This document shows, in pieces, positions 25,793-55,315 of a stretch of 64,000 bases of DNA. How positions within the stretch are numbered: the first letter of the stretch is position 1; every line of letters begins with the position of its first letter. This DNA comes from an uncultured Candidatus Saccharibacteria bacterium (GTDB lineage: Bacteria; Patescibacteriota; Minisyncoccia; SW-4-49-11). The DNA lies in contig CAZYEN010000029.1 in the NCBI GenBank assembly GCA_964646465.1, forward strand, positions 2,670 to 66,669. Direction: 5' to 3'. The translations under genes and the position numbers were made by a program. Below the pieces are notes generated by a model. It saw nothing but the letters and a program-made list of their open reading frames with translations, did not search any database and was not told where the DNA came from.

Positions 25793-26308
25793 TTATCCTA
25801 CTGATACTCCGTTAATAATCAAAATAGAAACTAGAAGTCCGAACACAGCGAAAGTCTCTACCAAGGCTGCTAGAATAATAACTTGTCCAATTTTAGATTT
25901 ATCTCTAGAAATTAACTGTACACCACTGGCGATTACATCTCCTTGATATTTACCTGAAGCTAAACAAGTAAGTCCGACTGGAATTCCTGCAAAAGCCAAA
26001 ATCATACCGTTCTGCCAACTTAAATTTGCAAATTCACCAGATAAAACTCCTGTGTTTTGTAAAATCAGCACAGCTGCCAAAAGTCCATAGATGGCCTGGG
26101 ATCCTGGAAGAGCAGACAACAAAAGCACATTCCCAAATTGAGAATCATCTTCCGCTACCAATCCTGCTCCGGTTTTTCCTGCTGTAGATACTCCAATAGA
26201 TGAACCAGCACCAGCCAATCCTGCTGCAAGGGCTGCTCCTAATACTGCTAAACTTACTCCTAATATTTCCATATTTTCAACTTTAACTCTTATATAAGGG
26301 ACACTCAT
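25793..26308 (-). CDS. atpK: V/A-type ATP synthase proteolipid subunit K (c)
   Basis: A Gly/Ala-rich four-helix proteolipid of 171 aa. Confidence 0.85.
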   Translation of the reverse strand: MSVPYIRVKVENMEILGVSLAVLGAALAAGLAGAGSSIGVSTAGKTGAGLVAEDDSQFGNVLLLSALPGSQAIYGLLAAVLILQNTGVLSGEFANLSWQNGMILAFAGIPVGLTCLASGKYQGDVIASGVQLISRDKSKIGQVIILAALVETFAVFGLLVSILIINGVSVG

Positions 26309-26376
26309 TGTTTACTGGTATCCTTTTCACTATACTCCTAATTTAACCTATGAATACAGTGAAAGAGATCACAGTA

Positions 26377-28793: not shown

Positions 28794-30239
28794 TTATAAA
28801 AAAAACTTTTTACGAATGATTTCATCCTGTTCTCTTTGCTTTTCTTCGATTAAATTGATGGCTTTAATTTTGAGGTCTTTTAGGTCTTGGGTGGCAAGTG
28901 CTTGGGATTGTGATTTGAGGTATTCAATATAATTTTTACTAGGGTCCTCTAAAATTTCAGCTAATAGCACATTGAGAATTATTCCTATAATTGGCCCAGG
29001 TTTAATATTGAGTTCATTTATCAAGATATTGCCATCAATTTTGAGCATGGATAAATCTATTGGGTCTAATAAAACCTTCTCAGTCATATATTCAAAGTGA
29101 CGTAGGCGATAGGGGCGGGCCTTTGGCGTACCTGATCCTATACGATCACATTCTCGCAGTTTAATCAAGTCTTTGATATTCTCAGCCCCTACATTACGTA
29201 CTAATTTACGAATTGAGGTCTCTGTAACTTCATTAGTATCATAGTAAAACATATGGTATCTAACTAGTTTAGAGATTCTAGCTGAAAACTTTTTGGGATA
29301 ATGTAATCTGTTCAAAATATCATAAGCCATACTGGCTCCTACTATTTCATGATTATGAAAGGTACAAGTTTTCCCAATACCTTCTTTGGTGCGGGGTTTG
29401 GCAATATCGTGTAGTAATCCGGCCATTCTTAAATCAAAACTCCAATCCATATCACAAGCATGTTGCATAGTTCGTAGTAAATGTTCCCATACGTCATAAA
29501 TATGATGCCCATTTTGCTCTACTCCAATACCTTCCTCTAGTTCTGGCATAATGTAGTGTAGTAGTCTGCTATCTCTGAGCAGAATATATCCATTCATAGC
29601 TCGCGGAGTCAGCATCATTTTGGTGAGTTCATCCCGAATTCTCTCTTGAGCAATATGTTTTAGATTTGGTGCTAACTGTTGTATAGCCTGTAAGGTTTTA
29701 GATTCAATCACAAAATCTAATTGCACAGCAAATCTCACAGCTCGCATTAGTCTCAAGGCATCTTCATTAAATCTATCTTGGGGCTCTCCCACCGTACGGA
29801 TGATTTTGGCTTGAAGGTCATCTAAACCTCCAAAAAAATCCTGAATTTCACCTTGTCTATTCATTGCAAGAGCATTTACAGTAAAATCTCGACGAGCTAG
29901 GTCTTGAGATAGTTCAGACACAAATTCTACTTGCTCAGGGTGTCTATTATCTGTATATTGAGACTCCTCACGGTAGGTTGTAACTTCAATAATCTCCACC
30001 GATTCATCAGGACGGCGATATTTTACCCCCACTGTGCCAAAAGTATTCTCATACACAGAGTCGGGGAATAGCTCTTGAATTTGTACAGGTAGGGCATTGG
30101 TAGTAATGTCCCAGTCTACGGGAGTTTTATTACCTAATACTAAATCTCTCACACTACCTCCAACGATAAAAGCCTCAAAACCAGCTTCTTCTAATGTGTG
30201 CAGGATGAAAAGTATGTGATTCGGTATATTATAATTCAT
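28794..30239 (-). CDS. cca: CCA-adding tRNA nucleotidyltransferase with an HD domain
   Basis: The head motif GGSVRDLVLG..DWDITT, the RFAVQLDF motif and the HD region LLHDIAK. Confidence 0.85.
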   Translation of the reverse strand: MNYNIPNHILFILHTLEEAGFEAFIVGGSVRDLVLGNKTPVDWDITTNALPVQIQELFPDSVYENTFGTVGVKYRRPDESVEIIEVTTYREESQYTDNRHPEQVEFVSELSQDLARRDFTVNALAMNRQGEIQDFFGGLDDLQAKIIRTVGEPQDRFNEDALRLMRAVRFAVQLDFVIESKTLQAIQQLAPNLKHIAQERIRDELTKMMLTPRAMNGYILLRDSRLLHYIMPELEEGIGVEQNGHHIYDVWEHLLRTMQHACDMDWSFDLRMAGLLHDIAKPRTKEGIGKTCTFHNHEIVGASMAYDILNRLHYPKKFSARISKLVRYHMFYYDTNEVTETSIRKLVRNVGAENIKDLIKLRECDRIGSGTPKARPYRLRHFEYMTEKVLLDPIDLSMLKIDGNILINELNIKPGPIIGIILNVLLAEILEDPSKNYIEYLKSQSQALATQDLKDLKIKAINLIEEKQREQDEIIRKKFFL

Positions 30240-30258
30240 AAAAATTTTTGATAAATTG

Positions 30259-30335
30259 TGGAGCCAATGGTGGGGATCGAACCCACGACCTATGCGTTAC
30301 GAATGCATTGCTCTACCAGACTAAGCTACATTGGC
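30259..30335 (-). tRNA. tRNA-Thr (anticodon CGU) with encoded CCA
   Basis: The rc reads GCCAATG-TA-GCTT-AGTCTGGTA-GAGC-A-ATGCA-TTCGTAA-CGCAT-AGGTC-GTGGG-TTCGATC-CCCAC-CATTGGC-T-CCA. I folded this cloverleaf by hand. The anticodon is CGT. Confidence 0.85.
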
Positions 30336-30393
30336 GCACTTTTAGTATAGTCTAAAATAGCTATTAGAGCAATATATAAATAAAAGCCCCCGA

Positions 30394-30741
30394 CTATCTT
30401 AGTGGGGGCTTTAATCTTTGAATTCTTGTGTTTGACCTTAATAATTTTGTATTTCTACGTATCAACTTGTCAATTAGACGATATATATTATCATCTAGTA
30501 AGATTGATATTTGAGGCATCTCAGAACATTGTTCTATTTGGTGGCGAATATGACTTATTGCAGAGTCTATAGTATTAATAGAGTTTCCACTTTTACCAAT
30601 ATCTCGTTGATCATTTTGAGTGATTATCTTTTCTAAACCTGATAAACTAGAAACTGAGATAGTCTTGGATTCTTTAGCTCTTTGTAATAGTTGAAGAATT
30701 TTATTCCATTGTTTATATGAATAAGTGCGTGAGGTCGACAT
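30394..30741 (-). CDS. Hypothetical protein
   Basis: A 115-aa ORF with a GAGG ribosome-binding site 5 nt upstream of the ATG. Confidence 0.45.
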   Translation of the reverse strand: MSTSRTYSYKQWNKILQLLQRAKESKTISVSSLSGLEKIITQNDQRDIGKSGNSINTIDSAISHIRHQIEQCSEMPQISILLDDNIYRLIDKLIRRNTKLLRSNTRIQRLKPPLR

Positions 30742-30819
30742 GAGACTTTCCTCTGTAGATTGGTATTTAGACTATCAAAATCTAAGTTTTATGTCAAATT
30801 ATGATTTATGTCCTCCTTT

Positions 30820-31020
30820 GGAGGAGGTGGCACGAAGTGGCGGTGGTGTATTAGGTTTAATATTATTACAAACAAGTGTTTATTTTAGTATTTCAAAATT
30901 TATCCACCCTCCCCCTACGGGTACTCCCTCCGAAGGGAGACAAAATATCAAATACAGGAGACTGCAAGGTCGCCCCTACGGAAAAACATTATGGAGGGGT
31001 AAACCCTCCGCTACGAGAAA
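30820..31020. repeat. GC-rich hairpin repeat cluster, an inverted copy of the 19330-19450 family
   Basis: The hairpin tcctcc-aaa-ggagga is present. tccaccctccccctacgggtactccctccgaagggagacaaaa (30903-30946) is the reverse complement of 19398-19440. An internal partial duplication (gtaggggcgacc...agtctcc) is also visible. Confidence 0.6.
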
Positions 31021-31044
31021 AAAAAGCCCCGCTGAGTGCGGGGC
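31013..31044 (-). terminator. Intrinsic terminator (gccccgcactcagcggggc plus U8) downstream of the GC-rich gene
   Basis: The hairpin and T-run are seen on the minus strand. Confidence 0.55.
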
Positions 31045-31065
31045 TTGAGTTGTAGGATCGGTGTC

Positions 31066-31632
31066 TCAGGAAGCCATGAGATCAAACAGAAGTTGGTACC
31101 ATTGATCGAGACCATCATTCAGGAGCTCCAATGCTTGGTCATCGATCACCTCCATCACTGGGGGGTGAGGTTTCCCGATGATGGCTGGTTTGCTACCTAG
31201 TTCTTCTCGGACACTCTCCCAATATGAGGCCGTCTTAGTTGAAAGCTGGAAACGTTCTCCAAGGAAGGTGGTATCCATTGAGGGCACCTGCCCAGGTAGG
31301 GTTCTATTAAACTCATTCCGCTCCTCCTGAGCGGCGAGAGACACCAAAGCCTCACGGGCTTTGGTGGCCTGCCCGTAATCAATACGGGCTAGATCCCGTT
31401 CGAGCTCTATGAGCTCAGCACTTCTGTCGCACCAAGGCGACACAAGTCGGTAAAATTCCACCAGCTGAGTGAGAGGAGTTCCTCCATGACTACGGAGAGA
31501 TAGGGCAGTATGAGTCCCTGTAGCTTTCTTCTTCAAGTGTTCCAGCTTCTGCTCCACTTGAGCAGAAGAGGTTCCTAGCGAGCGAAGTCGCTGAGGAATA
31601 TGAAAATTGGAGAGGACTGTGGTGATAGCCAT
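31066..31632 (-). CDS. Hypothetical protein encoded in a ~50% GC island
   Basis: A strong AAGGAG ribosome-binding site lies 8 nt upstream of the Met at 31632. Sampled lines are 45-57% GC, against about 28% for their neighbours. No motif was recognised. Confidence 0.5.
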   Translation of the reverse strand: MAITTVLSNFHIPQRLRSLGTSSAQVEQKLEHLKKKATGTHTALSLRSHGGTPLTQLVEFYRLVSPWCDRSAELIELERDLARIDYGQATKAREALVSLAAQEERNEFNRTLPGQVPSMDTTFLGERFQLSTKTASYWESVREELGSKPAIIGKPHPPVMEVIDDQALELLNDGLDQWYQLLFDLMAS

Positions 31633-31711
31633 TAGGCTAACTCCTTGTAAAATGTACAGAATTAACCATACCACAAAATCAACAAAATGTCAATATATAT
31701 AGACAAATATT

Positions 31712-33127
31712 TTAAGATTTTATAATTACACTTTGCCCGTCTTTATCCTGGATGGTATAGCCTAAATTAGATAATTCTTGTCTTAGTTTGTCAGCTTGTG
31801 CAAAGTCTTTATTAGCTCGAGCTTGATTGCGTTGATTAAAAATTTCTACTATCTCAGCGGGGATTGAGGTTTTGGTGAGGGGTAAATCTAGAGCCAGTAC
31901 TCGCTCTAATCTCTGGAACAATTTGAGTATATGGCGTCTTGGGATGGGCTCTTGTGCGTCTATTGCTGTGTTGACTTCTTTTATAAACTCAAACATAAAA
32001 GCAATAGCCTTTGGGGAGTCTAGGTCAGAGAATAGGGATTTTTTGAAATTATTATAAGTATCTCGGATTAATTTTTGGAGTTTTGGGTTTTTGCGATGGG
32101 GTTTGACTAAATTCACTCTATTAATAAAGTCTATAATTCGCTGGCGTGTTTGTTTGGCTTGCTGTAATGATTCCCAAGAAAAATCTATATCGGAGCGATA
32201 ATGTGCCATCAAGACCAATAATCTTAAATCTAATGGGGAATAGCCTTGAGTAATAATATCATCTAGGGTTATAAAAGTTCCCGCTGATTTTGACATCTTA
32301 TCTGTGTTGATAGTTAGAAAATAGTTATGAAGCCAATAATTAGCCATTGTCTTGCCAGTATCTGCTTTGAACTGAGCTATTTCATTAGTATGATGAATTG
32401 GGATATGGTCTTTGCCTCCTGTATGTATGTCAAATGGTGCATGAAGCAAGGAATCTGCCATTACCACACATTCAGAATGCCAACCAGGGAATCCAATACC
32501 CCAAGGGCTATTCCATTCCATTTGTCTTGTCTCTCCTTTAGGTGAGAACTTCCATAGAGCAAAATCTGAGGGGGATTTTTTCTCTCCCATCTCAACTCTA
32601 GCTCCAGCCTCTTGAGCTTGTAATTTTAAGTGAGCAAAGTCAGAGTATTCTTGTAATTTGGTAGTATCAAAGTATACTCCATCACTTGTAATATAGGTAT
32701 AGCCCTTTTTTTCTAATCTTTTGATTAAATTTATTTGCTCTCTTATATATTCGGTAGCTTTAGGGTAGTGATCGGATGGAAGTACATTAAGCTTAGCTAG
32801 ATCTTCTTGCCAGAGCTTAGTATATTTGATTGCTACTTCTTGGGCGGTAAGTTGTTCTCTTCTGGCTCCTTTTTCTAATTTATCCTCACCAGTGTCCTCA
32901 TCACTAACTAGATGTCCTACATCAGTAATATTAGTGACGGAGTAGACATTATAATTATGTAATTTTAGAGTTCTTTTGAGTAAGTCGTCAAACAGAGATT
33001 TTCTTAAATTTCCAATATGTTGCCTGTCATACACGGTTGGCCCACAACTATATATAGAGACTCTTTTGGGGTGAATGGGTTTGAATGGTATCACTGCTCG
33101 GGCTGGAGTATTATAAAGTTTAATCAT
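31712..33127 (-). CDS. cysS: Cysteinyl-tRNA synthetase
   Basis: The HIGH-type motif CGPTVYDRQHIGN and the KMSKS motif. Confidence 0.9.
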   Translation of the reverse strand: MIKLYNTPARAVIPFKPIHPKRVSIYSCGPTVYDRQHIGNLRKSLFDDLLKRTLKLHNYNVYSVTNITDVGHLVSDEDTGEDKLEKGARREQLTAQEVAIKYTKLWQEDLAKLNVLPSDHYPKATEYIREQINLIKRLEKKGYTYITSDGVYFDTTKLQEYSDFAHLKLQAQEAGARVEMGEKKSPSDFALWKFSPKGETRQMEWNSPWGIGFPGWHSECVVMADSLLHAPFDIHTGGKDHIPIHHTNEIAQFKADTGKTMANYWLHNYFLTINTDKMSKSAGTFITLDDIITQGYSPLDLRLLVLMAHYRSDIDFSWESLQQAKQTRQRIIDFINRVNLVKPHRKNPKLQKLIRDTYNNFKKSLFSDLDSPKAIAFMFEFIKEVNTAIDAQEPIPRRHILKLFQRLERVLALDLPLTKTSIPAEIVEIFNQRNQARANKDFAQADKLRQELSNLGYTIQDKDGQSVIIKS

Positions 33128-37227: not shown

Positions 37228-40227
37228 TTATAATACTTTTATTCCCAAGACTCTTTCTAGTTCTGCAAAATCAGTAGTATGGTCTAATACCTTTAGGATA
37301 CCAGAAACTTCTAAAGTTGTCATCCCTTCCTCAATAGCTAGGCTCTTGATATTAGCAGTTGAGGCATTAGATATAATAGTTTCTTTGATTCTGGGTGTCA
37401 GTACTAATACCTCAAATATAGCAGTGATGCCATTATATCCATTTGGATGCTCGGGGCTAGACTTAGACTCAAGAATAGTATCAGGTATTATACTATGATA
37501 TCTCTCTGGTAATTTAGATTTGATTATATCTTTTTGTTCATCAGAAAGGGTAATAGGGGTTGCATTAGTAGGGTCTATTTTTCTAACAATTCTCTGAGCA
37601 ATAGTCACATTTACAAAAGTAGCTATTTCAGACAGTCCCACTCCCAAGTCATATAATCTTAAAATAGCCGAAGCAGCATCATTGGTATGTAGAGTAGACA
37701 ATAATAAATGTCCAGTAGCTGCTGTTTGCATCGCTACCTTAGCAGTCTCTCCATCTCTTATCTCCCCGATTAAGACAATGTTTGGATTTTGTCTTAAAAG
37801 AGCTCTGATAGCATTAGGGAAACTATAACCAGTCTCTTCATTGATACTGGTCTGTAAAATTCCAGATAATTTATATTCAATTGGATCTTCTATAGTGATA
37901 ATTTTGACTCCAGGTTGATTTAGCGTGTTGAGGGTGGCGTAAAGAGTTGTAGACTTACCAGCACTGGTAGGCCCGGTTACTAAAATTAGTCCAGTAGTTG
38001 CTTTTAACTGTTCCTGTAAAAGTTTAATATTATACTCATCCATGCCGAGGTCTTGTAATTTTATATTAGTAATATCTGATCTTAGTATTCTAAGTACAAT
38101 AGTCTGTCCATAACCTCCTGGAATGATAGAAACTCTGACATCAAAGTTTTTGTCTGTAAAAATAGTGAATCTACCTTCTTGGATTTTATTAGCAATATCT
38201 AAAGGTAGCCCAGTAAAAATTTTAATTTGGCTTAAAATTTGAGGATAGAGTGATTTCGGAACACGAGCTTCCTCATACAATACTCCATCAATCCGAAATC
38301 TAATTATAAGATCAGACATATCTGGCTCAAGGTGAATGTCGGTGGCTCTTTTAGTTAATGCAGCATTAGTAATAGCTGTAAGTTGGTCGTTAATAGACAT
38401 CGATTCAGATATATGGTCAATTTCGGGTAGAGAATCACCAGATTTGTTAATATGAATTCCTCGAGATAAGGCTGACGTCAAAGTAGTCTCATAAATTTCA
38501 TCTACATAAGATATATCTCCCGCCACAGATAAAACCTCTTCAAGGGAAGTCTCTCCATCTACTGCATGTAATACTCCATCTTGAAACAGAGTAACCATAC
38601 CATTTTCAATAGCTTTTCTAAAGATTTTAAATTCTGGAGTATTGTTAATAATTAAATCTTTAATATTGTCACGGGTTTCAAATAATTCATATAAAGCAAG
38701 TCTGCCCTTATAACCTATACCATAACACTTAAAGCAACCTTTTGGACGATATAATCTAGTAATATCTTGAGGTATGGTTAAGTTAGATTTAGGCGATATT
38801 ATAGCCAAGGCTTTTTTTATATAATCTAATTCATTTTCTTCTGGAATATACTCTTCCTTACAATCACATAGCCTCCTTACTAATCTCTGAGCTACAAAAA
38901 GATTCATTGCCGAGATTATTAGTTGGGGGCTAGAACCAAACTCTTTTAATCTAGTAATAATTCCTACCGAATCATTTGTATGAATAGTAGAGAAAACTAA
39001 ATGTCCTGTAATAGCTGCGTTAACAGATATACTAGCTGTTTCATTATCTCTAATTTCTCCAACCATAATTACATCAGGGTCTTGTCTTACAATAGCTTTT
39101 AGTCCATTGGCAAAAGTATATCCTTTTTTATTATCTACTTGAGTTTGATTAATGTTGTGTAATCTATATTCAATAGGATCCTCAATAGTAATTATATTCG
39201 TTTCACTCCGATTAACATAATTAAGAAAAGAGTATAGACTAGTAGTTTTACCTGAACCTGTAGGCCCAGATAACATTATCATTCCTTGAGGTTTGTCTAG
39301 ATTTCTAACTATAATATCTAAAAAAGATTCACGAATGCCAAAATCATAAATATCTAAACTATGAACTGCTGTATTAAGCAGTCTCATAACGATAATCTCT
39401 CCAGTTTTACTAGGTAAGATAGAAACTCTAACGTCAATAGATTGCTTTATATTCCCATTACTCTCTTTGATGGTAATAGAAAATCGACCATCTTGAGCAA
39501 TAGTTTTAATATTTAAAACTAGAGAGGCTAAATTCTTGACTCTTGAAATTAATAATTTATACATTTCATTATCAAAGTTCAAAATATCTTGTAAAACTCC
39601 ATCTATACGGTATCTAAGACGAGTAATATCTCCTTTTGGCTCAATATGTATATCACTAGCAAGTGCTGTTATAGCCCCAGCACAAATTATTTGAGTTAAT
39701 TCAGAAGTGTCAATAGCGTCAATTTTACGAGCAAAATCTTCTAATGAGACTACTCCTTGATTAAACTCATCGATCATTGTAAGAGGAATTATTAATTTAT
39801 CTTTAACAATTTCACTTCTCTCCTGTAAAAATTCATAGGAATTATAACCCTTCTCTAAACTATACTGTGAAACTAGATACAAATCCAGTCCATACTTATT
39901 TTGATACAACCTTTGCAATATTGTTTTAGCTATAGGATTATCTAGATCTTGTAGCGCTATCTTAAGATTTAGTCCAGATCTTTGAAAAATTATCATCTTA
40001 GCTTTTTGGGCCTGTTCTTTAGTTAGAATTTTAAGAGCATCTGGATTAATTGGAATAAATTGCAAGTTAAGATAAGGTATACCAAGACTATCTGCTAAAT
40101 TTTGAGTATTAGATTCTTCTTCTTTTTTACGGATAGTAGATAAATTCATATCTACCACATTGTCAGAATGTAATTTATCTCGAAAGCTTTGCCGATTGGA
40201 TTTTTTTTGTTTTAATATTGTGCTCAT
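37228..40227 (-). CDS. pilB: Tandem-fused double GspE/PilB-type secretion ATPase (type IV pilus/T2SS assembly ATPase x2)
   Basis: Two complete units are present. Each has a GspE N-domain-like region (ASDIHIEP), a Walker A (GPTGSGKTT and GPTSAGKST), an Asp box (VGEIRD and IGEIRDGETA) and a His box (GHLVFSTIHTND and GHLLLSTLHTND). A CxxC...CxxC tetracysteine motif sits between them. Confidence 0.85.
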   Translation of the reverse strand: MSTILKQKKSNRQSFRDKLHSDNVVDMNLSTIRKKEEESNTQNLADSLGIPYLNLQFIPINPDALKILTKEQAQKAKMIIFQRSGLNLKIALQDLDNPIAKTILQRLYQNKYGLDLYLVSQYSLEKGYNSYEFLQERSEIVKDKLIIPLTMIDEFNQGVVSLEDFARKIDAIDTSELTQIICAGAITALASDIHIEPKGDITRLRYRIDGVLQDILNFDNEMYKLLISRVKNLASLVLNIKTIAQDGRFSITIKESNGNIKQSIDVRVSILPSKTGEIIVMRLLNTAVHSLDIYDFGIRESFLDIIVRNLDKPQGMIMLSGPTGSGKTTSLYSFLNYVNRSETNIITIEDPIEYRLHNINQTQVDNKKGYTFANGLKAIVRQDPDVIMVGEIRDNETASISVNAAITGHLVFSTIHTNDSVGIITRLKEFGSSPQLIISAMNLFVAQRLVRRLCDCKEEYIPEENELDYIKKALAIISPKSNLTIPQDITRLYRPKGCFKCYGIGYKGRLALYELFETRDNIKDLIINNTPEFKIFRKAIENGMVTLFQDGVLHAVDGETSLEEVLSVAGDISYVDEIYETTLTSALSRGIHINKSGDSLPEIDHISESMSINDQLTAITNAALTKRATDIHLEPDMSDLIIRFRIDGVLYEEARVPKSLYPQILSQIKIFTGLPLDIANKIQEGRFTIFTDKNFDVRVSIIPGGYGQTIVLRILRSDITNIKLQDLGMDEYNIKLLQEQLKATTGLILVTGPTSAGKSTTLYATLNTLNQPGVKIITIEDPIEYKLSGILQTSINEETGYSFPNAIRALLRQNPNIVLIGEIRDGETAKVAMQTAATGHLLLSTLHTNDAASAILRLYDLGVGLSEIATFVNVTIAQRIVRKIDPTNATPITLSDEQKDIIKSKLPERYHSIIPDTILESKSSPEHPNGYNGITAIFEVLVLTPRIKETIISNASTANIKSLAIEEGMTTLEVSGILKVLDHTTDFAELERVLGIKVL

Positions 40228-44424: not shown

Positions 44425-45606
44425 ATGAAATTATATAACTTTTTATTCACAGCTATTCTTCTAATTATATCTTTTGTTTTAGGAGGATTTTATTTTCAAG
44501 ATTATGTGTATAGTTTTATTTCTTCTAATTCTAAATTGTCAAATAATTTAGAGACTGATTCTTTACAAAAAGTATATAACTTTTTACGAGAGGAATATCT
44601 TTATCCTGATAAATTTGAAGACAAATTAAATGCAGAGTTAGGTGCAGTAAAAGGGGTAGTAGAATCTCTTGATGATCCATATACTGTTTACTTATCTAAA
44701 GATGAATATAAGGATTTTTCAGAGAGTTTAGATGGTAAATTTCAAGGAATTGGAGCTGAAATTGGACTCAAAGAGGGTCAGTTAATAGTTATCTCTCCAA
44801 TTGCAGGTACTCCAGCTAGTAAGGCTGGGTTATTGCCAGGAGATGCTATTATTAATATTAATGGTGAAAATACGTTTGGTCTCAGTGTAGACAAAGCAGT
44901 TTCCAAAATTAGAGGAGAAAAAGGAACCGAAGTTAAATTAGAAATAGCAAGAGAAGGGCAGGATGGAATAAAAGAATTTGTTATAGTTAGAGATACTATA
45001 GATGTTCCAAATATTACAATTAAAGAAAAAGATGAAGTTGGTATTATTACTTTATCTCAATTCCAGGTGGAAACAGCTCAAGAATTAGATAAAGAAATAG
45101 TAAAGTTGCAAAAAAAAGGTATTAATAATGTAATACTAGACTTAAGAAATAATCCTGGAGGCTATTTACAGGCAGCCGTTGAAGTAGTTGAATTATTTAC
45201 TCCAAAAGGATCGGTCGCAGTGATAGAAAAAGGCAGAGAATCTAATATGGTAAAAGAGATAAAAACTAAAAAGGCTCCCAAATATGAAGAAATAAAGTTA
45301 GTAGTACTAGTCAATCAAGGCTCAGCCAGTGCTTCTGAAATAGTAGCAGGTGCTCTGAGAGATTTGAAAGATATTAAGTTAGTTGGGCAGCAGACTTTTG
45401 GTAAAGGTTTAGTACAAAGTACTAAAGAGTTTCCTGATGGATCTGTTTTAAAGTATACTATTGCAGAATGGTTTACTCCTGATGGATCGGCTCTTAACAA
45501 AGAAGGAATTAAGCCAGATTTTGAAGTAAAATTAACAGCTGATGATATTAAAGCAGAAAAAGACCCTCAATTAGATAAAGCAATAGAAATAATAAAATCC
45601 AAATAA
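44425..45606 (+). CDS. ctpA: Carboxyl-terminal processing protease (S41, CtpA-like)
   Basis: The PDZ region GLLPGDAIININGEN, and the catalytic region LVNQGSASASEIVAGAL with a downstream Lys. Confidence 0.85.
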   Translation: MKLYNFLFTAILLIISFVLGGFYFQDYVYSFISSNSKLSNNLETDSLQKVYNFLREEYLYPDKFEDKLNAELGAVKGVVESLDDPYTVYLSKDEYKDFSESLDGKFQGIGAEIGLKEGQLIVISPIAGTPASKAGLLPGDAIININGENTFGLSVDKAVSKIRGEKGTEVKLEIAREGQDGIKEFVIVRDTIDVPNITIKEKDEVGIITLSQFQVETAQELDKEIVKLQKKGINNVILDLRNNPGGYLQAAVEVVELFTPKGSVAVIEKGRESNMVKEIKTKKAPKYEEIKLVVLVNQGSASASEIVAGALRDLKDIKLVGQQTFGKGLVQSTKEFPDGSVLKYTIAEWFTPDGSALNKEGIKPDFEVKLTADDIKAEKDPQLDKAIEIIKSK

Positions 45607-45610
45607 ATAT

Positions 45611-46825
45611 TTATATTTGATCGAAAGAAACTATGTTCCCATTGATCTCTACTCCATTTTGAGAAATGCTTTTAGAGCTAATAATAACTCTTTTATTAAT
45701 TCCGAGTAAATCAGCTTCTGCGAATTTTATGCCAGGTCTTTCATTACGGTTATCGAATAAAACGCTTTGATTATTTTCTTTAAGATTATCATATAGTTCC
45801 CCGGCTTTTTGCATAACTTCTACCGAGTCCGTGTTTAGGGCGATAAGATGAATGTTAAAGGGGCTAACCTCAACAGGCCACTTCATTTTAGCTTCATTTT
45901 CAGCAAAAACCTCTACTAAAGTTCCCATTAATCTAGAAATTCCAATTCCATAACATCCCATAATTACAGGTTTATTTATACCATTCTCATCAGTAAATTC
46001 TAAGTCAAAAGCTTCAGAGTATTTTGTTTGTAATTTGAATATATTTCCAACTTCAATGGATTGTCTTTGAGTTAAATCAGAGTTATTACACTCAGGACAA
46101 GTTTTTTGTTCTTCTATAATTTCTTTATTGATAGCAATATTACATTTTTCACATATAAAAATCGTATCTTCTCCAATATCAGATATGGTTTGGAATTCGT
46201 GAGAATATTTACTAAAAGTACCGCCTGAAGCATAAGTCTTAAGAGTAATATCACCAATACCAAGCCTTTTATAAATGTTCAAGTAGGCTTGAGTTACGAT
46301 CTCGTAATATGTATCTAAATCTTCAGAAGAACTATGAAAGGAATATAAATCTTTCATAATAAACTCTCGACCTCTTAATATGCCTGATTTTGCCCTTTTT
46401 TCATCCCTAAATTTAGTTTGAATTTGATAAGCAGCTAAAGGTAAATCTTGATATGATTGAATAAGATTTTTTGCTATAGGTGTTATAATCTCTTCATGAG
46501 TAGAACCTAAAGCTAACTCTGTTGAAGTGTAGTAAGAAGTAAATCTGTAAAGTACATCTAAACTATCCCATCTACCAGTTTTTTCCCAATAAGATTTTGG
46601 TTGTAAGGCTGGTAACAATAGTTCTTGAGCTGATATTTTATTAAGTTCTTGTCTCACTATACTTTCAATATTTTGTAAAACACGATAACCTAATGGTAGG
46701 TAAGCATAAACTCCAGCCATAACTTGTTCCACGTAGCCTGCTTTTATTAGAATTTTGGCGTTTAAAGACTCTTCAGATTGAGATATATATTTTCTAGTTT
46801 TTGAAATTAATTCAGATTGATACAT
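45611..46825 (-). CDS. proS: Prolyl-tRNA synthetase, bacterial type, lacking the INS editing domain (a CxxC...CPEC mini-insert is present instead)
   Basis: Motif 2 reads QIQTKFRDEKRAKSGILRGREFIMKDLYSFH and motif 3 reads GCYGIGISR. The protein is only 404 aa. Confidence 0.8.
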   Translation of the reverse strand: MYQSELISKTRKYISQSEESLNAKILIKAGYVEQVMAGVYAYLPLGYRVLQNIESIVRQELNKISAQELLLPALQPKSYWEKTGRWDSLDVLYRFTSYYTSTELALGSTHEEIITPIAKNLIQSYQDLPLAAYQIQTKFRDEKRAKSGILRGREFIMKDLYSFHSSSEDLDTYYEIVTQAYLNIYKRLGIGDITLKTYASGGTFSKYSHEFQTISDIGEDTIFICEKCNIAINKEIIEEQKTCPECNNSDLTQRQSIEVGNIFKLQTKYSEAFDLEFTDENGINKPVIMGCYGIGISRLMGTLVEVFAENEAKMKWPVEVSPFNIHLIALNTDSVEVMQKAGELYDNLKENNQSVLFDNRNERPGIKFAEADLLGINKRVIISSKSISQNGVEINGNIVSFDQI

Positions 46826-46833
46826 ATTAAGTT

Positions 46834-47295
46834 TTAATTATTAAGTAAGGTACTTATTTTATCTTGAGGGAAGTATTTCATAACAATGTGCCATACTGGT
46901 TTGCGATATTCATGTAGAAATTTTTCAATTTTATTTTGAGATACCCATAGAAATCCTCCTAATTCTCGTCTATCTACTCTAATTGATTGGGTTCCTCCAT
47001 TGAACCGTAACAACATAATGGTTTGCTCTTGTCCTAAGTTTTCGTCCCTGATTAATCTTTTAGGAAAATAGAAAGTGTGTTTTTCTGGACATTTATCCAA
47101 AATTGTAAAATCAGTAGTGTTTAATTCTTCTCCTAACTCTCTTATTATGGCTTCTTCATGAGTTTCATTTTCATTAACTCCGCCTTGAGGAAATTGCCAG
47201 TGTAGAGGGTCATTTGCCCTAGATACAATTAATACATTTTCATCTTTATCGAATATGATTGCTAGTACATTTTTTCTTAGCTTACCATAGGACAT
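46834..47295 (-). CDS. Nudix hydrolase
   Basis: The Nudix box reads QGGVNENETHEEAIIRELGEELN, matching GX5EX7REUXEEXGU. The gene lies 8 nt upstream of proS on the same strand. Confidence 0.75.
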   Translation of the reverse strand: MSYGKLRKNVLAIIFDKDENVLIVSRANDPLHWQFPQGGVNENETHEEAIIRELGEELNTTDFTILDKCPEKHTFYFPKRLIRDENLGQEQTIMLLRFNGGTQSIRVDRRELGGFLWVSQNKIEKFLHEYRKPVWHIVMKYFPQDKISTLLNN

Positions 47296-47458
47296 ATATT
47301 TTTAAAATTAGGCTATTATCATAATTGCATATATTATAGCTTATATTTAGTATTTTGTATATATTTAAAGTATTTTTATTTAAAAAGATGAGAAATATCG
47401 TAGACAAAAATTTAAAAACATGGTATATTATACTATATTAATATAATATAGTATAAAT

Positions 47459-47698
47459 ATGAGTAAAAAACTATTAGAAAAACACCCAGATCACAAAGAA
47501 TTCATTTATAAGACTGAGATTATAGCAAGATATGCTCTAAAAGCTATGGTAATATTAGTAGCTATTACACTTGTCCTGTATCAGGTATTGTTCGCTTTGT
47601 CATATCTTGGGTTAACTTCATATCAAGAATATAAGCAAGAGCAACAACAGAAGCAGCAGCAAGAAGCTCTAGAGCAGTTACAAGAAGATAAAAAATAA
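47459..47698 (+). CDS. Small protein with one TM helix and a Gln/Lys-rich tail
   Basis: A 79-aa ORF followed by a clean terminator. Confidence 0.35.
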   Translation: MSKKLLEKHPDHKEFIYKTEIIARYALKAMVILVAITLVLYQVLFALSYLGLTSYQEYKQEQQQKQQQEALEQLQEDKK

Positions 47699-47728
47699 AT
47701 AATAATTTTTTTCACTACCTTTGCAATA

Positions 47729-47751
47729 GAAGCCGGTAATTCCGGTTTTTA
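47729..47751 (+). terminator. Intrinsic terminator (agccgg-taatt-ccggtt plus T5)
   Basis: The hairpin and T-run are seen in the sequence. Confidence 0.5.
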
Positions 47752-47814
47752 TTGTAAATATATTCAATATGGTATAAACTAAATATAGTTTAGAAATTAC
47801 ACTTTTATTTAAAT

Positions 47815-48876
47815 ATGAACATCATAGAATTTAAGGCTGAGTTTCAGTCCGTATTAGCCCAAGCTATTAAATCAAAATTTACAGAATATAGTCAGTATAC
47901 TGATGATCAGGAGATTTTAGAGATAATTAATTATGCTAAATCTATTATAGGTGGAGGAAAATGTATTCGACCTTATATGGCATATATCTTGTATGAAACC
48001 TTGGGATGTGATAACAAAGAGGTTGTTATGGATTTATTAGTATCTTTAGAAATCTTCCATTCCTTTGCATTGATACATGATGATGTAATTGATGAAGGCA
48101 AAATGCGTCATAAGGTAGAAACTTTACACACTTTTGTATCAAAAAGGATACAATATAATCATAGGACTTTTGCACACAGAATCCATTATGGCCATTCTCA
48201 GGCTATCTTGGTAGGTGATTTATTATTCTCGTGGTCCATTAGTAGATTTCATCAATTTAGTCACTTACCTTATTATAATGAAGCTTGTAAAATTTTTCAT
48301 ACAATGATAGATGAGGTGGCTATAGGACAGATGATAGATGTTAATGTTATGACTAGAGATGCAATTAGTTCTCAATTGATAGAAACTAAAATGCGACTCA
48401 AAACAGCAGGATATACTTTTGTAAGGCCAATGCAGATAGGCGTTGCACTGGCAGGTAAGGAAAAAGAACTAACCCAGTTTTGTGTGGACTTTGGGATAGC
48501 TTTGGGCTTGGCCTTTCAAACTCAAGATGATATTTTGGATGTTATTGCTGATCCGAAAATAATTAAGAAATCAGTTCTATCAGATATAAGAGAGCATCAA
48601 CATACTTTTTTAACACAATATGTGCTTGAAAATGGTAAAAACTCAGACATTGTAGAATTAGAAAAATATTGGGGAAAATCTGAATTAAATGACAGTGATC
48701 AGTTCCATATTGTTAAACTTTTCGAAAAAACTGGAGCATTATCTTATGCTAGATCTAAAGTCGCAGAATATCTAGATCAAGCTAAACAGATTACCTTAAA
48801 GGAAAAAAATATTACTGATAAAACTAAACTGGTATTAAATCAATTAATAAAGTATATCGAAGATAGAGGTTATTAA
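47815..48876 (+). CDS. Polyprenyl diphosphate synthase (trans-isoprenyl transferase)
   Basis: FARM LIHDDVIDEGKMR and SARM FQTQDDILDV. Confidence 0.85.
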   Translation: MNIIEFKAEFQSVLAQAIKSKFTEYSQYTDDQEILEIINYAKSIIGGGKCIRPYMAYILYETLGCDNKEVVMDLLVSLEIFHSFALIHDDVIDEGKMRHKVETLHTFVSKRIQYNHRTFAHRIHYGHSQAILVGDLLFSWSISRFHQFSHLPYYNEACKIFHTMIDEVAIGQMIDVNVMTRDAISSQLIETKMRLKTAGYTFVRPMQIGVALAGKEKELTQFCVDFGIALGLAFQTQDDILDVIADPKIIKKSVLSDIREHQHTFLTQYVLENGKNSDIVELEKYWGKSELNDSDQFHIVKLFEKTGALSYARSKVAEYLDQAKQITLKEKNITDKTKLVLNQLIKYIEDRGY

Positions 48877-50883: not shown

Positions 50884-51642
50884 ATGGCTTATACCTTAGT
50901 GTTAATGCGACATGGAGAGAGTGTTTGGAATCAGCTAGATAAATTTACTGGTTGGACTGATGTTGAATTATCTACTAAAGGTATTCAAGAAGCGAAAACA
51001 GCTGGGGTAATGTTGCTACAAAATGGTTTTGAATTTGATATAGCTTATACTTCTATGTTAGATAGAGCTATAGATACATTACAATATGCATTAGAAGGAG
51101 CCCATATGACCTGGATACCTGTCGTTAAGGACTGGCATCTCAACGAAAGACATTATGGCGGTTTGCAGGGTAAAAATAAAGCTGAATCTATAGATGAATT
51201 TGGAGAGTATCAGGTAAAAGTGTGGAGAAGAGCATTTGCTATTAAACCTCCATTATTATCTGAGTATGATTCTAGATATCCTGCTAATGATGAGAGATAC
51301 ATTGATATCCCAGCTGAACAACTTCCTATTGGAGAGTCTCTCAAGGATACTTTAGATAGAGTTCAGCCATATTGGGAATCAGAGTTAAAACCAGCTATTT
51401 TATCTGGCAAAAGGTTAGTTATTTCAGCTCACGGTAATAGTTTAAGAGCTCTGTTGAAATTTTTAGAAAATATTTCAGATAATAAAATTATTGATATAGA
51501 AATACCAACTGGAAATCCATTGATTTATGAATTAGAAGAACATACATTAAAAGTTTTAAAGAAATATTACTTAATAGATATAAAAAATAAAAGTAATAAA
51601 AATATATTTAGTAAATTGAAATCTATTTTTAAATTAACTTAA
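50884..51642 (+). CDS. gpmA: 2,3-bisphosphoglycerate-dependent phosphoglycerate mutase
   Basis: LMRHGESVWN ... ERHYG, the histidine phosphatase signature of dPGM. Confidence 0.85.
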   Translation: MAYTLVLMRHGESVWNQLDKFTGWTDVELSTKGIQEAKTAGVMLLQNGFEFDIAYTSMLDRAIDTLQYALEGAHMTWIPVVKDWHLNERHYGGLQGKNKAESIDEFGEYQVKVWRRAFAIKPPLLSEYDSRYPANDERYIDIPAEQLPIGESLKDTLDRVQPYWESELKPAILSGKRLVISAHGNSLRALLKFLENISDNKIIDIEIPTGNPLIYELEEHTLKVLKKYYLIDIKNKSNKNIFSKLKSIFKLT

Positions 51643-51645: not shown

Positions 51646-52323
51646 ATGTCAAAGATTATTTTAGTAAGACATGGTGATAGTCAATGGGATCAAGAAAATA
51701 GATTTATAGGTTGGGTAGATGTTCCGTTATTGGAAAGGAAAGATTTACTTAAGAATATAGGTAACGTATTATTAAATAATAATACGGATATAGATGTTGT
51801 TATAACATCAACATTAGAAAGATCAATTGTAAGTGCTTGGACTATTATGAATAGTATGTATCATTCTTGGATAACAGAAATACATGATTGGCGACTAAAC
51901 CCAAGACATTATGGAATAATACAGGGCTTAACCTATCAAGAGGCTATTTTAAAATACCCTAATATTAATGAGATTAATTTGAGTTGGGATCAAACGGTAA
52001 ACCCAATTGCATTAGATGATAAAAATCATCCCAGGTATGATAGGAGGTATTCTAATGTAGAACCAGAAAAATTACCTTCAGTTGAAAGTTTAAAAGATGT
52101 TTATTCAAGGGTAGAGACTTTCATTACAGATGTCTTATTGCCAATCTTGGCTAAAAATGAGAATATTTTAATTGTTGCTCATCATGATAGTATTCGTTCT
52201 ATATTAAAATATTTTCAAAAATTATCGATTGAGGATACTATTGCATTTAATATTAATCCTTCTCATTCTATAGTATTAGAGTATGATGCTAATACAGGAA
52301 TATCAACTCAATCTCTCTTATAA
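51646..52323 (+). CDS. Histidine-phosphatase (dPGM-family) paralog
   Basis: LVRHGDSQWD ... PRHYG. It is a tandem paralog of gpmA with a shortened C-terminus. Confidence 0.75.
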   Translation: MSKIILVRHGDSQWDQENRFIGWVDVPLLERKDLLKNIGNVLLNNNTDIDVVITSTLERSIVSAWTIMNSMYHSWITEIHDWRLNPRHYGIIQGLTYQEAILKYPNINEINLSWDQTVNPIALDDKNHPRYDRRYSNVEPEKLPSVESLKDVYSRVETFITDVLLPILAKNENILIVAHHDSIRSILKYFQKLSIEDTIAFNINPSHSIVLEYDANTGISTQSLL

Positions 52324-52345: not shown

Positions 52346-55315
52346 ATGTATAATCATAGAATTATTGAACAGAAATGGGTTCAAAAGTGGTCCGAGGGAT
52401 TTGTAGATTACACAATTAATCCTCAAACATCTGAGGATAAAAAATATATTTTAGTTGAATTCCCTTTCCCTTCAGGAGCTGGACTTCATGTAGGACATAT
52501 CAGAAGTTATGTAGCTCAGGACATTAAAGCTAGAATATATAGAATGCAAGGAAATCAGGTGTTATATCCCATAGGTTGGGATGCTTTTGGTTTGCCAACA
52601 GAAAATTATGCTATTAAAAATAATATATCCCCAGCAGTAGCAACAGCAGATAATATAAAGAATTTTAAAAAACAATTAGCAGTCCTAGGGTTGTCTTTTG
52701 ATTGGAGTCGTGAAATCAATACCACTGACCCTAAATATTATAAATGGACTCAATGGATTTGGCTACAAATGTTTAAGTCAGGCCTTGCCTATCAAGATAC
52801 CACTCAAGTTTGGTGGTGTGAAGAATTAAAGACTGTCTTAGCTAATGAAGAGGTGATTGATGGTAAATCAGAGCGGGGAGGACATCCTTGTATTAGAGTT
52901 CCACTTCGGCAATGGATGTTAGCTATTACTAAGTATGCAGATAGATTAGACCGAGATTTAGAAAAAGTAGATTATTTACCAATTATCAAAACTCAACAAA
53001 GAAATTGGATAGGACGTAGTGAGGGGTTTGAGTTAAAATTTCAAGTTCAAGATATAGATCAGAATATAGAAATATTCACCACTAGAATCGATACTATTTT
53101 TGGAGTGACTTTTTTAGTTTTAGCTCCGGAACATCCACTTTTAGATAAAATTGTAAAAGCAGAATATAAGAATCAAGTTAAAGAGTATCAAGAGCAAACA
53201 AAATCTAAAAGTGATCTTGACAGACAACAAAGTAAAGATAAAACCGGGGTATTTACTGGAGCTTATGCTATACATCCACTAACAGAAGAACTAATCCCAA
53301 TTTGGATAGCTGATTATGTATTGGCAAGTTATGGTACAGGGGCTATAATGGCGGTCCCTGCCCACGATGAGAGAGATCAGGAATTTGCCAAAGAGTTTGG
53401 ATTATCTATTAAGCAGGTAGTTGCTCAATATACTACTCTTACAGGGCAAGATGCTCCAAAGAGTGATGAAAATATTGTGGAATTTGATGCTGCAACGGTA
53501 ATTATTAAACATTGGGTAGAAGAGTTATATTATGTCGTTCAATTTAGTAATAAAGCACAAGGTTTTGTTGGGGGGCATGTTGAATTAGGTGAGACAACAG
53601 AACAAACCGCAATTCGTGAGACGGCAGAAGAATCTGGATATATAGATATTAAAAATATTGAGCAGCTTATAGCACATGCATATGGCCGTGGATATAAGCC
53701 ACGTAAATCAAGAGAGGAATTATGCCATGATTCTCTTTACTTAATACATTTGAAAAGTGGTGAGAGGGTTGATGTTAATGATCATGAGATTAAAAATGGT
53801 GACTGGCTGAGTGCAGAAGAAATTGTAAGATCACAATTATTTTCTGATGGACACCGTTTATTTTTTGAATATTATCTCAATCAAAAACCATTTACAGGGT
53901 ATGGAAAACTTGTTAACTCAGGAGAATTTGATGGACTATTTTCAGAAGAGGCAAAGAAATCTATTATTACAATATTAGAAGAGCAAAATATCGGACACAG
54001 AAAAGTCCAATATAAACTTCGTGATTGGGTTTTCTCCAGACAAAGATATTGGGGAGAACCATTTCCTATTGTTTGGATAATTGAAGAGCATTATAAAAAA
54101 ATATCAGGAGAGATTGCTAGATTTTTACCTAGTCAAGCAGTAACTAGAGAAATAGAGGGGGTATTGCAGTATGCTGTCCCAATTGCAGTTTCAGATTTGC
54201 CATTAGAATTACCAGAAGTAGATTCTTATGTCCCTCAAGGATTAGGTGAAAGCCCATTAGCTCAAGCTACAGATTGGTTAGAAGTTTGGTATAATGTCCA
54301 AACTGGCCAAGCCATATCCAGGCAAAATCACAAGCCAGATAGTAATTGGGTAGAAGCCTTACGAGAAACCGATACAATGCCTAATTGGGCAGGAAGTTCT
54401 TGGTATTATCTTAGATATATTGATCCTAATAATGATGAGAAATTAGCTGACCCAGAATTATTAAAAAATTGGCTACCAGTATACTTATATAATGGAGGAA
54501 TGGAGCATGTTACATTACATCTATTATATTCAAGATTTTGGCATAAATTTTTATATGATATTGGAGTAGTCCATACCATAGAACCATATCAGACCAGAAT
54601 TAAGCACGGTATGATTTTAGCTGAAGGTGGTGTAAAAATGTCCAAGTCCAAAGGGAATACTGTTGACCCGATTGAAATGGTAGAGTCATTTGGAGCAGAT
54701 TCTCTGAGAGTTTATGAAATGTTTATGGGGCCTTATGATGAAGCCATAGCTTGGGACACTAAAGGTTTAATTGGATGTAGTCGCTTTTTAAAAAGAATCT
54801 ATCAATGGGTAAATGATATGAAAGAGCAAAAATTACAACCCAATAATGATAAAGCTAATCTAGACTATGAGACACATTCATTAATCAAGAAAATTACTCA
54901 AGATATAGATAATCAGAAATATAATACTTGTGTTAGTAGTTTGATGGAATATCTTAATTTATACAATACTCAAGATATAGGTATAGATAATATTAAAATA
55001 TATATTAAATTATTAGCTCCATTTGCCCCACATTTAACAGAAGAATTATGGGAAATAGTAGGGGAGAAGAATACAGTACATAAGTCCATATGGCCAATTT
55101 ATGATGATACTAAATTAGTCCAAAGCCAGTTAGATTATCAAATCCATATCAATGGTAAAATGCGAGATATCATCACAGTATCGAATGCATCCAACGAGGA
55201 AGAAATTCAAATACAAGCCCTCAACTCAGACAAAGTAAAACATATTCTGTCAGACAATATTCCAAAAAAAATTATAATAAATCAAGATAAACAAATAGTA
55301 ATAATTATTGTATAG
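52346..55315 (+). CDS. leuS: Leucyl-tRNA synthetase with a ~155-aa MutT-like Nudix domain inserted after the CP1 editing domain
   Basis: HVGH, the CP1 region TTRIDT...GTGAIMAVPAHDERD and KMSKS are all present. Between GLSIKQVV and LVNSGEFDGL there is an extra segment with the Nudix box GGHVELGETTEQTAIRETAEESGY. Confidence 0.9.
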   Translation: MYNHRIIEQKWVQKWSEGFVDYTINPQTSEDKKYILVEFPFPSGAGLHVGHIRSYVAQDIKARIYRMQGNQVLYPIGWDAFGLPTENYAIKNNISPAVATADNIKNFKKQLAVLGLSFDWSREINTTDPKYYKWTQWIWLQMFKSGLAYQDTTQVWWCEELKTVLANEEVIDGKSERGGHPCIRVPLRQWMLAITKYADRLDRDLEKVDYLPIIKTQQRNWIGRSEGFELKFQVQDIDQNIEIFTTRIDTIFGVTFLVLAPEHPLLDKIVKAEYKNQVKEYQEQTKSKSDLDRQQSKDKTGVFTGAYAIHPLTEELIPIWIADYVLASYGTGAIMAVPAHDERDQEFAKEFGLSIKQVVAQYTTLTGQDAPKSDENIVEFDAATVIIKHWVEELYYVVQFSNKAQGFVGGHVELGETTEQTAIRETAEESGYIDIKNIEQLIAHAYGRGYKPRKSREELCHDSLYLIHLKSGERVDVNDHEIKNGDWLSAEEIVRSQLFSDGHRLFFEYYLNQKPFTGYGKLVNSGEFDGLFSEEAKKSIITILEEQNIGHRKVQYKLRDWVFSRQRYWGEPFPIVWIIEEHYKKISGEIARFLPSQAVTREIEGVLQYAVPIAVSDLPLELPEVDSYVPQGLGESPLAQATDWLEVWYNVQTGQAISRQNHKPDSNWVEALRETDTMPNWAGSSWYYLRYIDPNNDEKLADPELLKNWLPVYLYNGGMEHVTLHLLYSRFWHKFLYDIGVVHTIEPYQTRIKHGMILAEGGVKMSKSKGNTVDPIEMVESFGADSLRVYEMFMGPYDEAIAWDTKGLIGCSRFLKRIYQWVNDMKEQKLQPNNDKANLDYETHSLIKKITQDIDNQKYNTCVSSLMEYLNLYNTQDIGIDNIKIYIKLLAPFAPHLTEELWEIVGEKNTVHKSIWPIYDDTKLVQSQLDYQIHINGKMRDIITVSNASNEEEIQIQALNSDKVKHILSDNIPKKIIINQDKQIVIIIV

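Follow-up and report, generated by a model that had tools for sequence, protein, structure and literature searches.

The Nudix superfamily is recognised by the box GX5EX7REUXEEXGU and by an α/β/α sandwich fold. In E. coli RppH, a member acting on RNA 5′ ends, the residues R27, Q30, L83, V137, F139 and Q95 make up the cleft and the contacts with the β-phosphate of diadenosine tetraphosphate (Ap4A) (PMC8833179). Prolyl-tRNA synthetases (ProRSs) that lack the INS editing domain and keep only a short remnant of it (mini-INS) are reported from 34% of bacteria, and rely on ProXp-ala/YbaK factors acting in trans (PMC3973320). The 64-kb stretch of contig CAZYEN010000029.1 analysed here (the window) comes from a low-GC genome (~32%) of the Patescibacteria or candidate phyla radiation (CPR), and contains ~60 genes, among which three encode aminoacyl-tRNA synthetases (aaRSs), namely CysRS, ProRS and LeuRS. 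In this window a gene for an RppH-like Nudix protein directly precedes the gene for a mini-INS ProRS, and our preferred reading, to which we assign a probability of about 60%, is that the pair forms a lineage-specific two-gene housekeeping operon in a Patescibacteria lineage related to Ca. Elulimicrobium. The features of the junction are as follows:

46834..47295, minus strand: Nudix hydrolase gene, 153 aa, an open reading frame (ORF), first gene of the pair
46826..46833, minus strand: spacer of 8 nt, AACTTAAT, separating the stop codon of the Nudix gene from the start codon of proS
45611..46825, minus strand: proS, an ORF encoding a 404-aa bacterial-type ProRS without INS editing domain (mini-INS), second gene of the pair
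47333..47361, minus strand: best σ70-like promoter match, TATACA-17-TATAAT (10/12), candidate promoter of the pair, ~38 nt before the start of the Nudix ORF

The first-pass annotation, made from the sequence alone, had placed a 153-aa Nudix gene 8 nt upstream of a 404-aa ProRS gene on the same strand, and this arrangement was confirmed. The junction reads AAT AAT TAA, then AACTTAAT, then ATG TAT CAA, with no Shine-Dalgarno-like sequence in the 8-nt spacer. The promoter scan gave no promoter-like site on the minus strand within the Nudix ORF, and no terminator-like site was found in 45300-47900. With a shared strand, a short spacer, no internal promoter or terminator found and a conserved gene order, the pair looks like a two-gene operon, for which these features predict co-transcription. 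A single Nudix/aaRS adjacency arising by chance in one genome is not improbable (roughly 10% by our own estimate), and the real evidence for more than chance is therefore the conservation of the pair in relatives.

Recognisable Shine-Dalgarno sequences were absent from the gene starts inspected throughout the window (e.g. 42525, 43581, 44425, 47815, 49808 and 52346), where the upstream sequence was merely AT-rich, which suggests that initiation in the source organism may be Shine-Dalgarno-independent. The product of a 79-aa ORF that lies divergent from the Nudix gene (47459-47698, plus strand) is predicted to contain a membrane segment and has a tail rich in Gln and Glu; the ORF is kept as a called 79-aa gene in the related loci L088 and L089 and probably encodes a real small protein.

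Conservation was followed from both genes of the pair. A word-indexed search with the Nudix protein among 5.8 billion proteins returned only 31 clusters, with 58-88% identity, plus two outliers, and three loci found from these Nudix homologs (L001, L003 and L005) have the Nudix gene immediately upstream of a gene for a ~410-aa ProRS. The ProRS-anchored set, in which no Nudix gene was presupposed, consisted of 79 loci, taken as species representatives, in which a ProRS ORF could be recognised. Two of these 79 have the Nudix gene upstream of proS, and they are the two closest to the window by ProRS identity (L006, 86%; L007, 65%). Further look-ups showed the pair to be present in L088 (78%) and L086 (62%) and absent in L087 (59%). 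The eight linked loci represent five sub-lineages (the window with L006 and L088, L007 with L086, and L001, L003 and L005 each on their own), with Nudix-proS spacers of 8, 5, 3, 12, 10, 9, 2 and 1 nt. The flanking genes differ completely in each linked sub-lineage, with the Nudix-proS junction alone being kept. Pairwise identities in the linked set go down to 47% for ProRS and 54% for the Nudix protein, and the two co-vary (r=0.82, 28 pairs), which is consistent with joint vertical inheritance of both genes. Monophyly of the Nudix-linked ProRSs was not recovered by neighbour-joining (0/40 bootstraps), in a tree with star-like deep nodes and a long branch for L005; from the coherence of the Nudix family we infer a single origin of the pair. 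The closest named ProRS relatives belong, by their annotation, to Parcubacteria, Minisyncoccia, Paceibacterota and, with 83% identity, Ca. Elulimicrobium humile. In L001, two RNase J genes are located near the Nudix-proS pair.

An improbable explanation of this pattern is that the genes are packing neighbours that are expressed independently, with a proS promoter that goes unrecognised within the Nudix gene's 3′ end, and with a conservation that results from the limited sampling of a shallow clade. This would agree with the local GC content of ~30%, at which AT-rich, promoter-like hexamers are ubiquitous and the promoter scan has no discriminating power, with the lack of a visible Shine-Dalgarno sequence at the inspected genes, which leaves coupling unreadable from the sequence, and with the inability of neighbour-joining to show the linked ProRSs as one clade. 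It is contradicted by junctions of 1-12 nt in 8/8 loci, by the low identities between members, which show that the linked set is not shallow, and by the fact that both flanks differ in every sub-lineage while the junction is preserved.

The identity of the first gene of the presumed operon was assessed from its sequence and a predicted structure. Its catalytic motif is located as follows:

47116..47184, minus strand: Nudix box, aa 38-60, GGVNENETHEEAIIRELGEELNT, found by regular expression and alignment, with catalytic R52, E53, E56 and E57, and preceded by WQFPQGG

The protein matched the Pfam NUDIX family (PF00293) with E=1.6e-16 and 61 bits (cutoff 21.1). Its Nudix box, GGVNENETHEEAIIRELGEELN, has every catalytic residue, and the final Gly of the consensus is Asn here and Gly in most homologs. 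In an alignment of 20 family members, R52, E53, E56, E57 and E111 were invariant, as were W33, Q34, P36, Q37, G38 and G39; E111 is the equivalent of RppH E120, and the catalytic E53, E56, E57 and E120 of RppH are thus all kept. The top five NCBIfam matches were all RppH models and all below their cutoffs, the best being PRK00714.1-3 (NF001936) with 90.6 bits versus 118, and since this is under the equivalog cutoff we filed the protein as RppH-like, a divergent member rather than an equivalog. The best sequence match in the Protein Data Bank (PDB) was 1F3Y, the Ap4A hydrolase of lupin (E=2e-15); phmmer also matched E. coli RppH (E~1e-12, aa 7-144), and both alignments span the full length of the Nudix protein. 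An AlphaFold2 model built from the 20 family members had the Nudix fold with a pLDDT of 93.1, and its best Foldseek matches were E. coli RppH in complex with RNA (4S2Y) and with Ap4A (7SP3), with TM-scores of 0.80-0.83, a root-mean-square deviation of 2.4-2.7 Å and 31% identity, followed by 1F3Y as next structural neighbour. Cleft residues were mapped through the PDB match alignment and the 20-member family alignment, with their roles taken from PMC8833179; four of the six are retained or conservatively replaced (R27=R26, L83=L81, Q95=Q89 and F139=Y130). The family also has the clade-specific conserved blocks NDPLH, LIRDE and HEYRKPVW.

By sequence and model, the protein is a divergent member of the subfamily that comprises RppH/NudH and the plant-type Ap4A hydrolases. 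The first-pass annotation had linked it to Np4N and related conjugates that aaRSs generate, and had named as a refuting outcome a Nudix protein that clusters with canonical RppH or MutT and has no aaRS link. The first half of this holds, as the protein does cluster with canonical RppH. Hydrolysis of Ap4A within its subfamily (1F3Y, and the RppH-Ap4A complex 7SP3) agrees with the substrate part of that proposal, but no specific tie to ProRS biology was found and functional coupling through Np4A is unsupported.

The second gene encodes a ProRS with the Pfam domains tRNA-synt_2b (PF00587) and HGTP_anticodon (PF03129). It scored 421.7 bits against TIGR00409 (proS_fam_II, cutoff 306.7) in a split match that bypasses the INS region, and 365.5 bits against the alphaproteobacterial mini-INS model NF008979/PRK12325, below its cutoff of 550. 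Its sequence matches in the PDB are bacterial ProRSs, likewise split across INS; in the alignment with E. faecalis ProRS the match resumes ~120 chain residues later, across INS. The distance between the GED and E(V)GNIF blocks is only 35-44 aa in short ProRSs, and full-length enzymes carry a far longer INS. The AlphaFold2 model of the ProRS (pLDDT 85.3, with 93-96 over residues 221-260) matched the fold of bacterial ProRSs with E~1e-39, and covers with its 404 aa only ~62% of the full-length enzymes (TMt ~0.62); the best reciprocal match was the INS-less ProRS of R. palustris, 2I4L (TMq 0.86, TMt 0.79). Short bacterial-type ProRSs of 395-446 aa are the rule in CPR, and the enzyme belongs to a separate CPR lineage of short ProRSs that has the same architecture as the alphaproteobacterial mini-INS type. 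In the place where INS would emerge, the stump contains four cysteines:

46088..46153, minus strand: putative Cys4 zinc site C225-x2-C228-x14-C243-P-E-C246, from the sequence, in the stump where INS would emerge

Both the absence of INS and the CxxC...CPEC element in its place had been recognised at first pass, and the split TIGR00409 match and C225, C228, C243 and C246 bear this out. The motif CxxC-x(12-16)-CxxC is present in 61/86 short ProRSs. Another 23 of the 86 have at most one Cys at the stump, including the non-CPR Ozemobacter genomes L078 and L084, and two have partial motifs in which a His apparently replaces the second Cys of the first knuckle (C-x2-H...CxxC in L003, CPHH; C-x3-H...CxxC in L070, CQNGH). 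C225, C243 and C246 were invariant and C228 was at least 90% conserved (alignment A2). In the model, the first CxxC lies at the turn of a β-hairpin (220-225/230-233, pLDDT 93-96) and the second in the return loop, and this stump hairpin corresponds by alignment to the INS-bearing strands of E. faecalis ProRS. Sequence matches of the stump to Zn-ribbon proteins were weak (E 0.3-1.7). From its sequence conservation and modelled geometry, the Cys4 group is probably a structural zinc site, a staple that closes the stump. We also considered it as a foreign or Nudix-tied element and rejected this, as it is the residual stem of INS, homologous to the flanking hairpin of full-length ProRSs.

That a hydrolase gene lies next to the gene of an editing-deficient ProRS had raised the idea that the Nudix gene is connected to the missing editing domain and its CxxC replacement, which did not hold. 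The Cys4 form is common among short CPR ProRSs and overwhelmingly lacks a Nudix neighbour, and the Nudix-linked ProRS of L005 has no Cys at all; since the Cys4/mini-INS form is thus seen with and without Nudix, the absence of INS has no relation to the presence of the Nudix gene. In its most explicit form, in which the Nudix enzyme would destroy alanyl- or cysteinyl-adenylate misactivated by the ProRS and so provide pre-transfer proofreading in trans, we consider this idea highly improbable. A scan of ~45 window ORFs with Pfam did reveal no YbaK/ProXp domain (tRNA_edit, PF04073), as such a replacement would allow, but 64 kb says little on the whole genome and is far too small a window for excluding trans-editing factors. 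In CPR, ProRSs of the mini-INS type without editing are the norm; they also occur, with no partner of this kind, in 34% of bacteria, and the known solution is post-transfer editing by ProXp-ala/YbaK in trans (PMC3973320). The Nudix protein moreover retains an RppH-type nucleotide cleft, and hydrolysis of adenylates is chemically unlikely for a Nudix enzyme. Nudix substrates are nucleoside diphosphates linked to a moiety X, and an aminoacyl-AMP is a monophosphate mixed anhydride; the enzymes that to our knowledge hydrolyse aminoacyl-AMP are of the HINT type, not Nudix enzymes.

The conservation of the Nudix-proS neighbourhood, which had been put forward as a check, stood for the eight loci of the five sub-lineages with their 1-12 nt spacers and ended there, as the pairing is missing from 77/79 ProRS-anchored loci of other species. 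As a background set we used ~77 distant RppH-family loci (26-40% identity), with generic RppH genes, among the matches listed for the pattern WQFPQGG, and none of these has a ProRS within 4 kb. The nearest outgroup Nudix gene (P0030 in locus L170, 41% identity) is followed by an aspartokinase-like gene starting MLIVQKFGGTSVG, and the next (29% identity) adjoins an ATP-synthase gene. The Nudix-proS pair is therefore lineage-specific. A DAGK_prokar gene lies just upstream of the Nudix gene both in L086 (3011-3355) and in the outgroup L170 (203-547), and L007 has in the same position a 114-aa ORF of the same size as dagK (5077-5421; identified by size and position alone), which suggests that dagK-Nudix is the older neighbourhood, which proS joined later. 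In other CPR loci, the commonest gene upstream of proS encodes an M50 (RseP-like) protease, which was found on the same strand and ending at most 900 nt upstream of proS in 32/74 loci with enough upstream sequence, and was directly adjacent (gap of 1-13 nt) in 16 loci, about half of the 32.

The window has a second Nudix domain in association with an aaRS, as the first-pass annotation had pointed out, located inside the LeuRS:

52346..55315, plus strand: LeuRS gene, carrier of the Nudix insert, not part of the Nudix-proS pair
53549..53854, plus strand: Nudix insert in LeuRS, aa 402-503, after the CP1 editing domain, Pfam NUDIX E=2.1e-12, with intact box GHVELGETTEQTAIRETAEESG

The insert is real and widespread, and both Nudix-box sequences in the 64-kb window thus associate with an aaRS. 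A word-index homolog search with the insert gave 0 matches, and an exhaustive search was used instead, which found 187 relatives (E<=1e-3) among 1.84 billion representatives. The top nine of these 187 were checked by Pfam (among P0152-P0171), and all are LeuRSs with 1-3 Nudix domains. Some LeuRSs carry further modules around CP1, namely HAD_2 (P0152) and Ser_hydrolase or α/β-hydrolase (P0171, L038), and a LeuRS of Falkowbacteria (L038:1959-5495) bears similar inserts. Judged from these sequences, CPR LeuRSs are a hotspot of hydrolase-domain insertions around CP1; we found no paper describing Nudix insertions in LeuRS. The free Nudix protein was considered as a paralog of the insert, which was rejected as their similarity is confined to the Nudix box (BLASTP E=0.29). 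Since the two are not close paralogs, they represent two independent associations, and the view of both as one Nudix-aaRS system was not sustained. Two tandem His_Phos_1 (phosphoglycerate-mutase-like phosphatase) genes (50884-51642 and 51646-52323, plus strand) lie directly upstream of LeuRS, and a comparable tandem pair adjoins proS in L001 (6748-8175).

In the housekeeping operon that we propose, the RppH-family Nudix enzyme would, by homology, trim RNA 5′ ends by taking off pyrophosphate or Np4 caps, and would have free Np4A and Ap5A as further substrates for hydrolysis. Such an activity would license 5′-end-dependent RNA decay and keep dinucleoside polyphosphates low; in Gram-positive-like systems, 5′-end trimming feeds RNase J-dependent decay. 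The second gene would provide the housekeeping ProRS of the lineage, of the standard CPR mini-INS type, with its stump closed by the probable structural Cys4 metal site. One promoter upstream of the Nudix gene would transcribe both genes, and translation of proS would probably be coupled to termination of the Nudix reading frame. The pair may persist because an essential proS that lacks its own promoter and starts behind a junction of 1-12 nt leaves no room for a neutral breakpoint, and as this lock-in would explain the persistence, a shared substrate of the two enzymes is not required. Nothing ties the Nudix gene to this type of ProRS in particular, as nearly all of the mini-INS/Cys4 ProRSs (61/86) are without it.

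Several observations weigh against this reading. The number of promoter-like sites is no greater than in shuffled sequence, so that the promoter evidence is weak. Two residues of the RppH cleft are changed (Q30 to P30, V137 to H128), so that, given also the RppH score below cutoff, the enzyme may prefer other substrates than RppH does. The survival of the pair in five sub-lineages despite reshuffling of its flanks is a classic signature of functional or physical interaction, and pure lock-in may be too dismissive. The aaRSs are a main source of Ap4A (PMC10148737), RppH-family enzymes hydrolyse Ap4A, and Nudix domains are fused to LeuRS in many relatives. Finally, in the Peribacteria locus L066 an unrelated 156-aa Nudix protein (5505-5975, plus strand, Pfam E=8.6e-14) is encoded 7 nt upstream of proS (5983/6001). 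We did not accept L066 as an independent second case and treat it as probably a chance or very recent juxtaposition, as its Nudix is unrelated and as the pairing is absent in the sister Peribacteria L055 and L058.

In an alternative that we regard as unlikely, yet worth keeping in sight, the two enzymes are coupled through Np4A. ProRS would, like other class II aaRSs, make Np4A from its aminoacyl-adenylate and a nucleoside triphosphate, and the co-expressed Nudix enzyme would hydrolyse this by-product, or the Np4 caps that result from it, in stoichiometric proportion to synthetase expression. Its extension, in which CPR repeatedly tie Nudix enzymes to aaRSs, by an operon here and by fusion in LeuRS, is likewise doubtful. 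The retention of the pair with unrelated flanks, the genuine Ap4A hydrolases and the RppH-Ap4A complex in the subfamily, the recognised role of aaRSs in Ap4A production (PMC10148737), the Nudix inserts in 9/9 LeuRS-sized proteins that were Pfam-checked out of the 187 insert relatives, the L066 arrangement and the association of both window Nudix boxes with an aaRS would all fit. Against it, the pairing is restricted to one lineage, and is absent from 77/79 ProRS loci, from all ~77 RppH-family loci and from the nearest outgroup Nudix. L087 lacks the Nudix gene although its ProRS is no more distant from the linked group than the members are from each other (59-62%), and no feature of the ProRS correlates with Nudix presence. 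The free Nudix is not closely paralogous to the LeuRS insert, the L066 pairing is about what we estimate chance to produce among 79 loci, and we found no evidence for ProRS as a particularly strong producer of Ap4A.

A still broader proposal, which we rate as rather improbable, is that CPR systematically attach Nudix enzymes to aaRSs, as the obligate operon partner of ProRS here and as 1-3 fused domains in LeuRSs of many lineages, together with HAD or α/β-hydrolase modules, destroying Np4N or adenylylated by-products at their source. If true, this would add to nucleotide housekeeping a so far unrecognised layer that is coupled to aaRSs, in organisms supposed to be without the usual ApaH- or YqeK-type Np4A hydrolases. 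The proS pairing and the LeuRS inserts together raise the possibility that reduced genomes couple the clearance of nucleotide by-products to synthetases, which, if true, would connect Np4A/Np4-cap biology with translation fidelity and economy in CPR. Literature searches on Nudix with ProRS, Nudix insertion in LeuRS, aaRS editing domains in CPR and a zinc ribbon in ProRS found nothing specific.

For annotation, the Nudix gene is best named RppH-like, the ProRS represents the CPR counterpart of the known mini-INS type without editing domain, and the pair serves as a marker operon of its lineage. Most CPR ProRSs carry the conserved Cys4 motif, a putative staple, in their INS stump; it appears to be undescribed, as we found no published description of it. 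More intriguing as a lead than the Nudix-proS pair are the much more widespread insertions of Nudix, HAD and α/β-hydrolase modules into CPR LeuRSs.

Elsewhere in the window, a translation-related cluster on the minus strand (28794-33127) comprises a CCA-adding enzyme/poly(A) polymerase with HD domain (28794-30239), tRNA-Thr(CGU) (30259-30335) and CysRS (31712-33127), the third aaRS of the window, which has no Nudix association. The region 16700-20000 is low in GC (0.26 at 16-18 kb) and contains ORFs without Pfam matches, a T5orf172/GIY-YIG-like gene (17985-18587), a helix-turn-helix protein (18639-19004) and a MazF/PemK toxin (19579-19980), and could represent a mobile or defence islet of small size. 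Genes for the V/A-type ATPase subunits D, B, A, c and I form an operon at 20159-28413 (minus strand). A 999-aa type II/IV secretion ATPase (37228-40227, minus strand) has two T2SSE stretches and an MshEN domain, and resembles a PilB-like ATPase that was duplicated in tandem or fused.

Among the described systems, E. coli RppH (NudH/YgdP; 4S2Y, 7SP3) resembles the window Nudix protein in length and in fold (TM 0.82-0.83, with 31% identical residues across the full length), in the WQFPQGG sequence, the Nudix box and the catalytic Glu residues, and in R27, L83, Q95 and F139 of the cleft, the last being Tyr here. The window protein differs from it by scoring below the NCBIfam cutoffs, by Pro at Q30 and His at V137, by its clade-specific blocks and by a gene that adjoins proS. 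The asymmetric plant-type Ap4A hydrolase of Lupinus angustifolius (1F3Y) is a member of the RppH subfamily and the best PDB sequence match (aa 7-142), but is a eukaryotic enzyme with ~29% identity to the window Nudix.

The alphaproteobacterial mini-INS ProRSs (R. palustris 2I4L; C. crescentus) share with the window ProRS the bacterial core, the anticodon-binding domain and a short INS stump, whereas the CPR enzyme falls below the PRK12325 cutoff and belongs to a group with CxxC-x(12-16)-CxxC in the stump in 61/86 members. The alphaproteobacterial type depends on ProXp-ala/YbaK in trans (PMC3973320). For the gene order, the closest parallel is the rseP(rasP)-proS arrangement of Firmicutes and most CPR, where proS is also the second gene of a tight same-strand pair and dependent on upstream transcription, the order in B. 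subtilis being rasP-proS. The difference lies in the upstream partner, which is an M50 protease in those genomes and an RppH-like Nudix gene in the lineage studied here.

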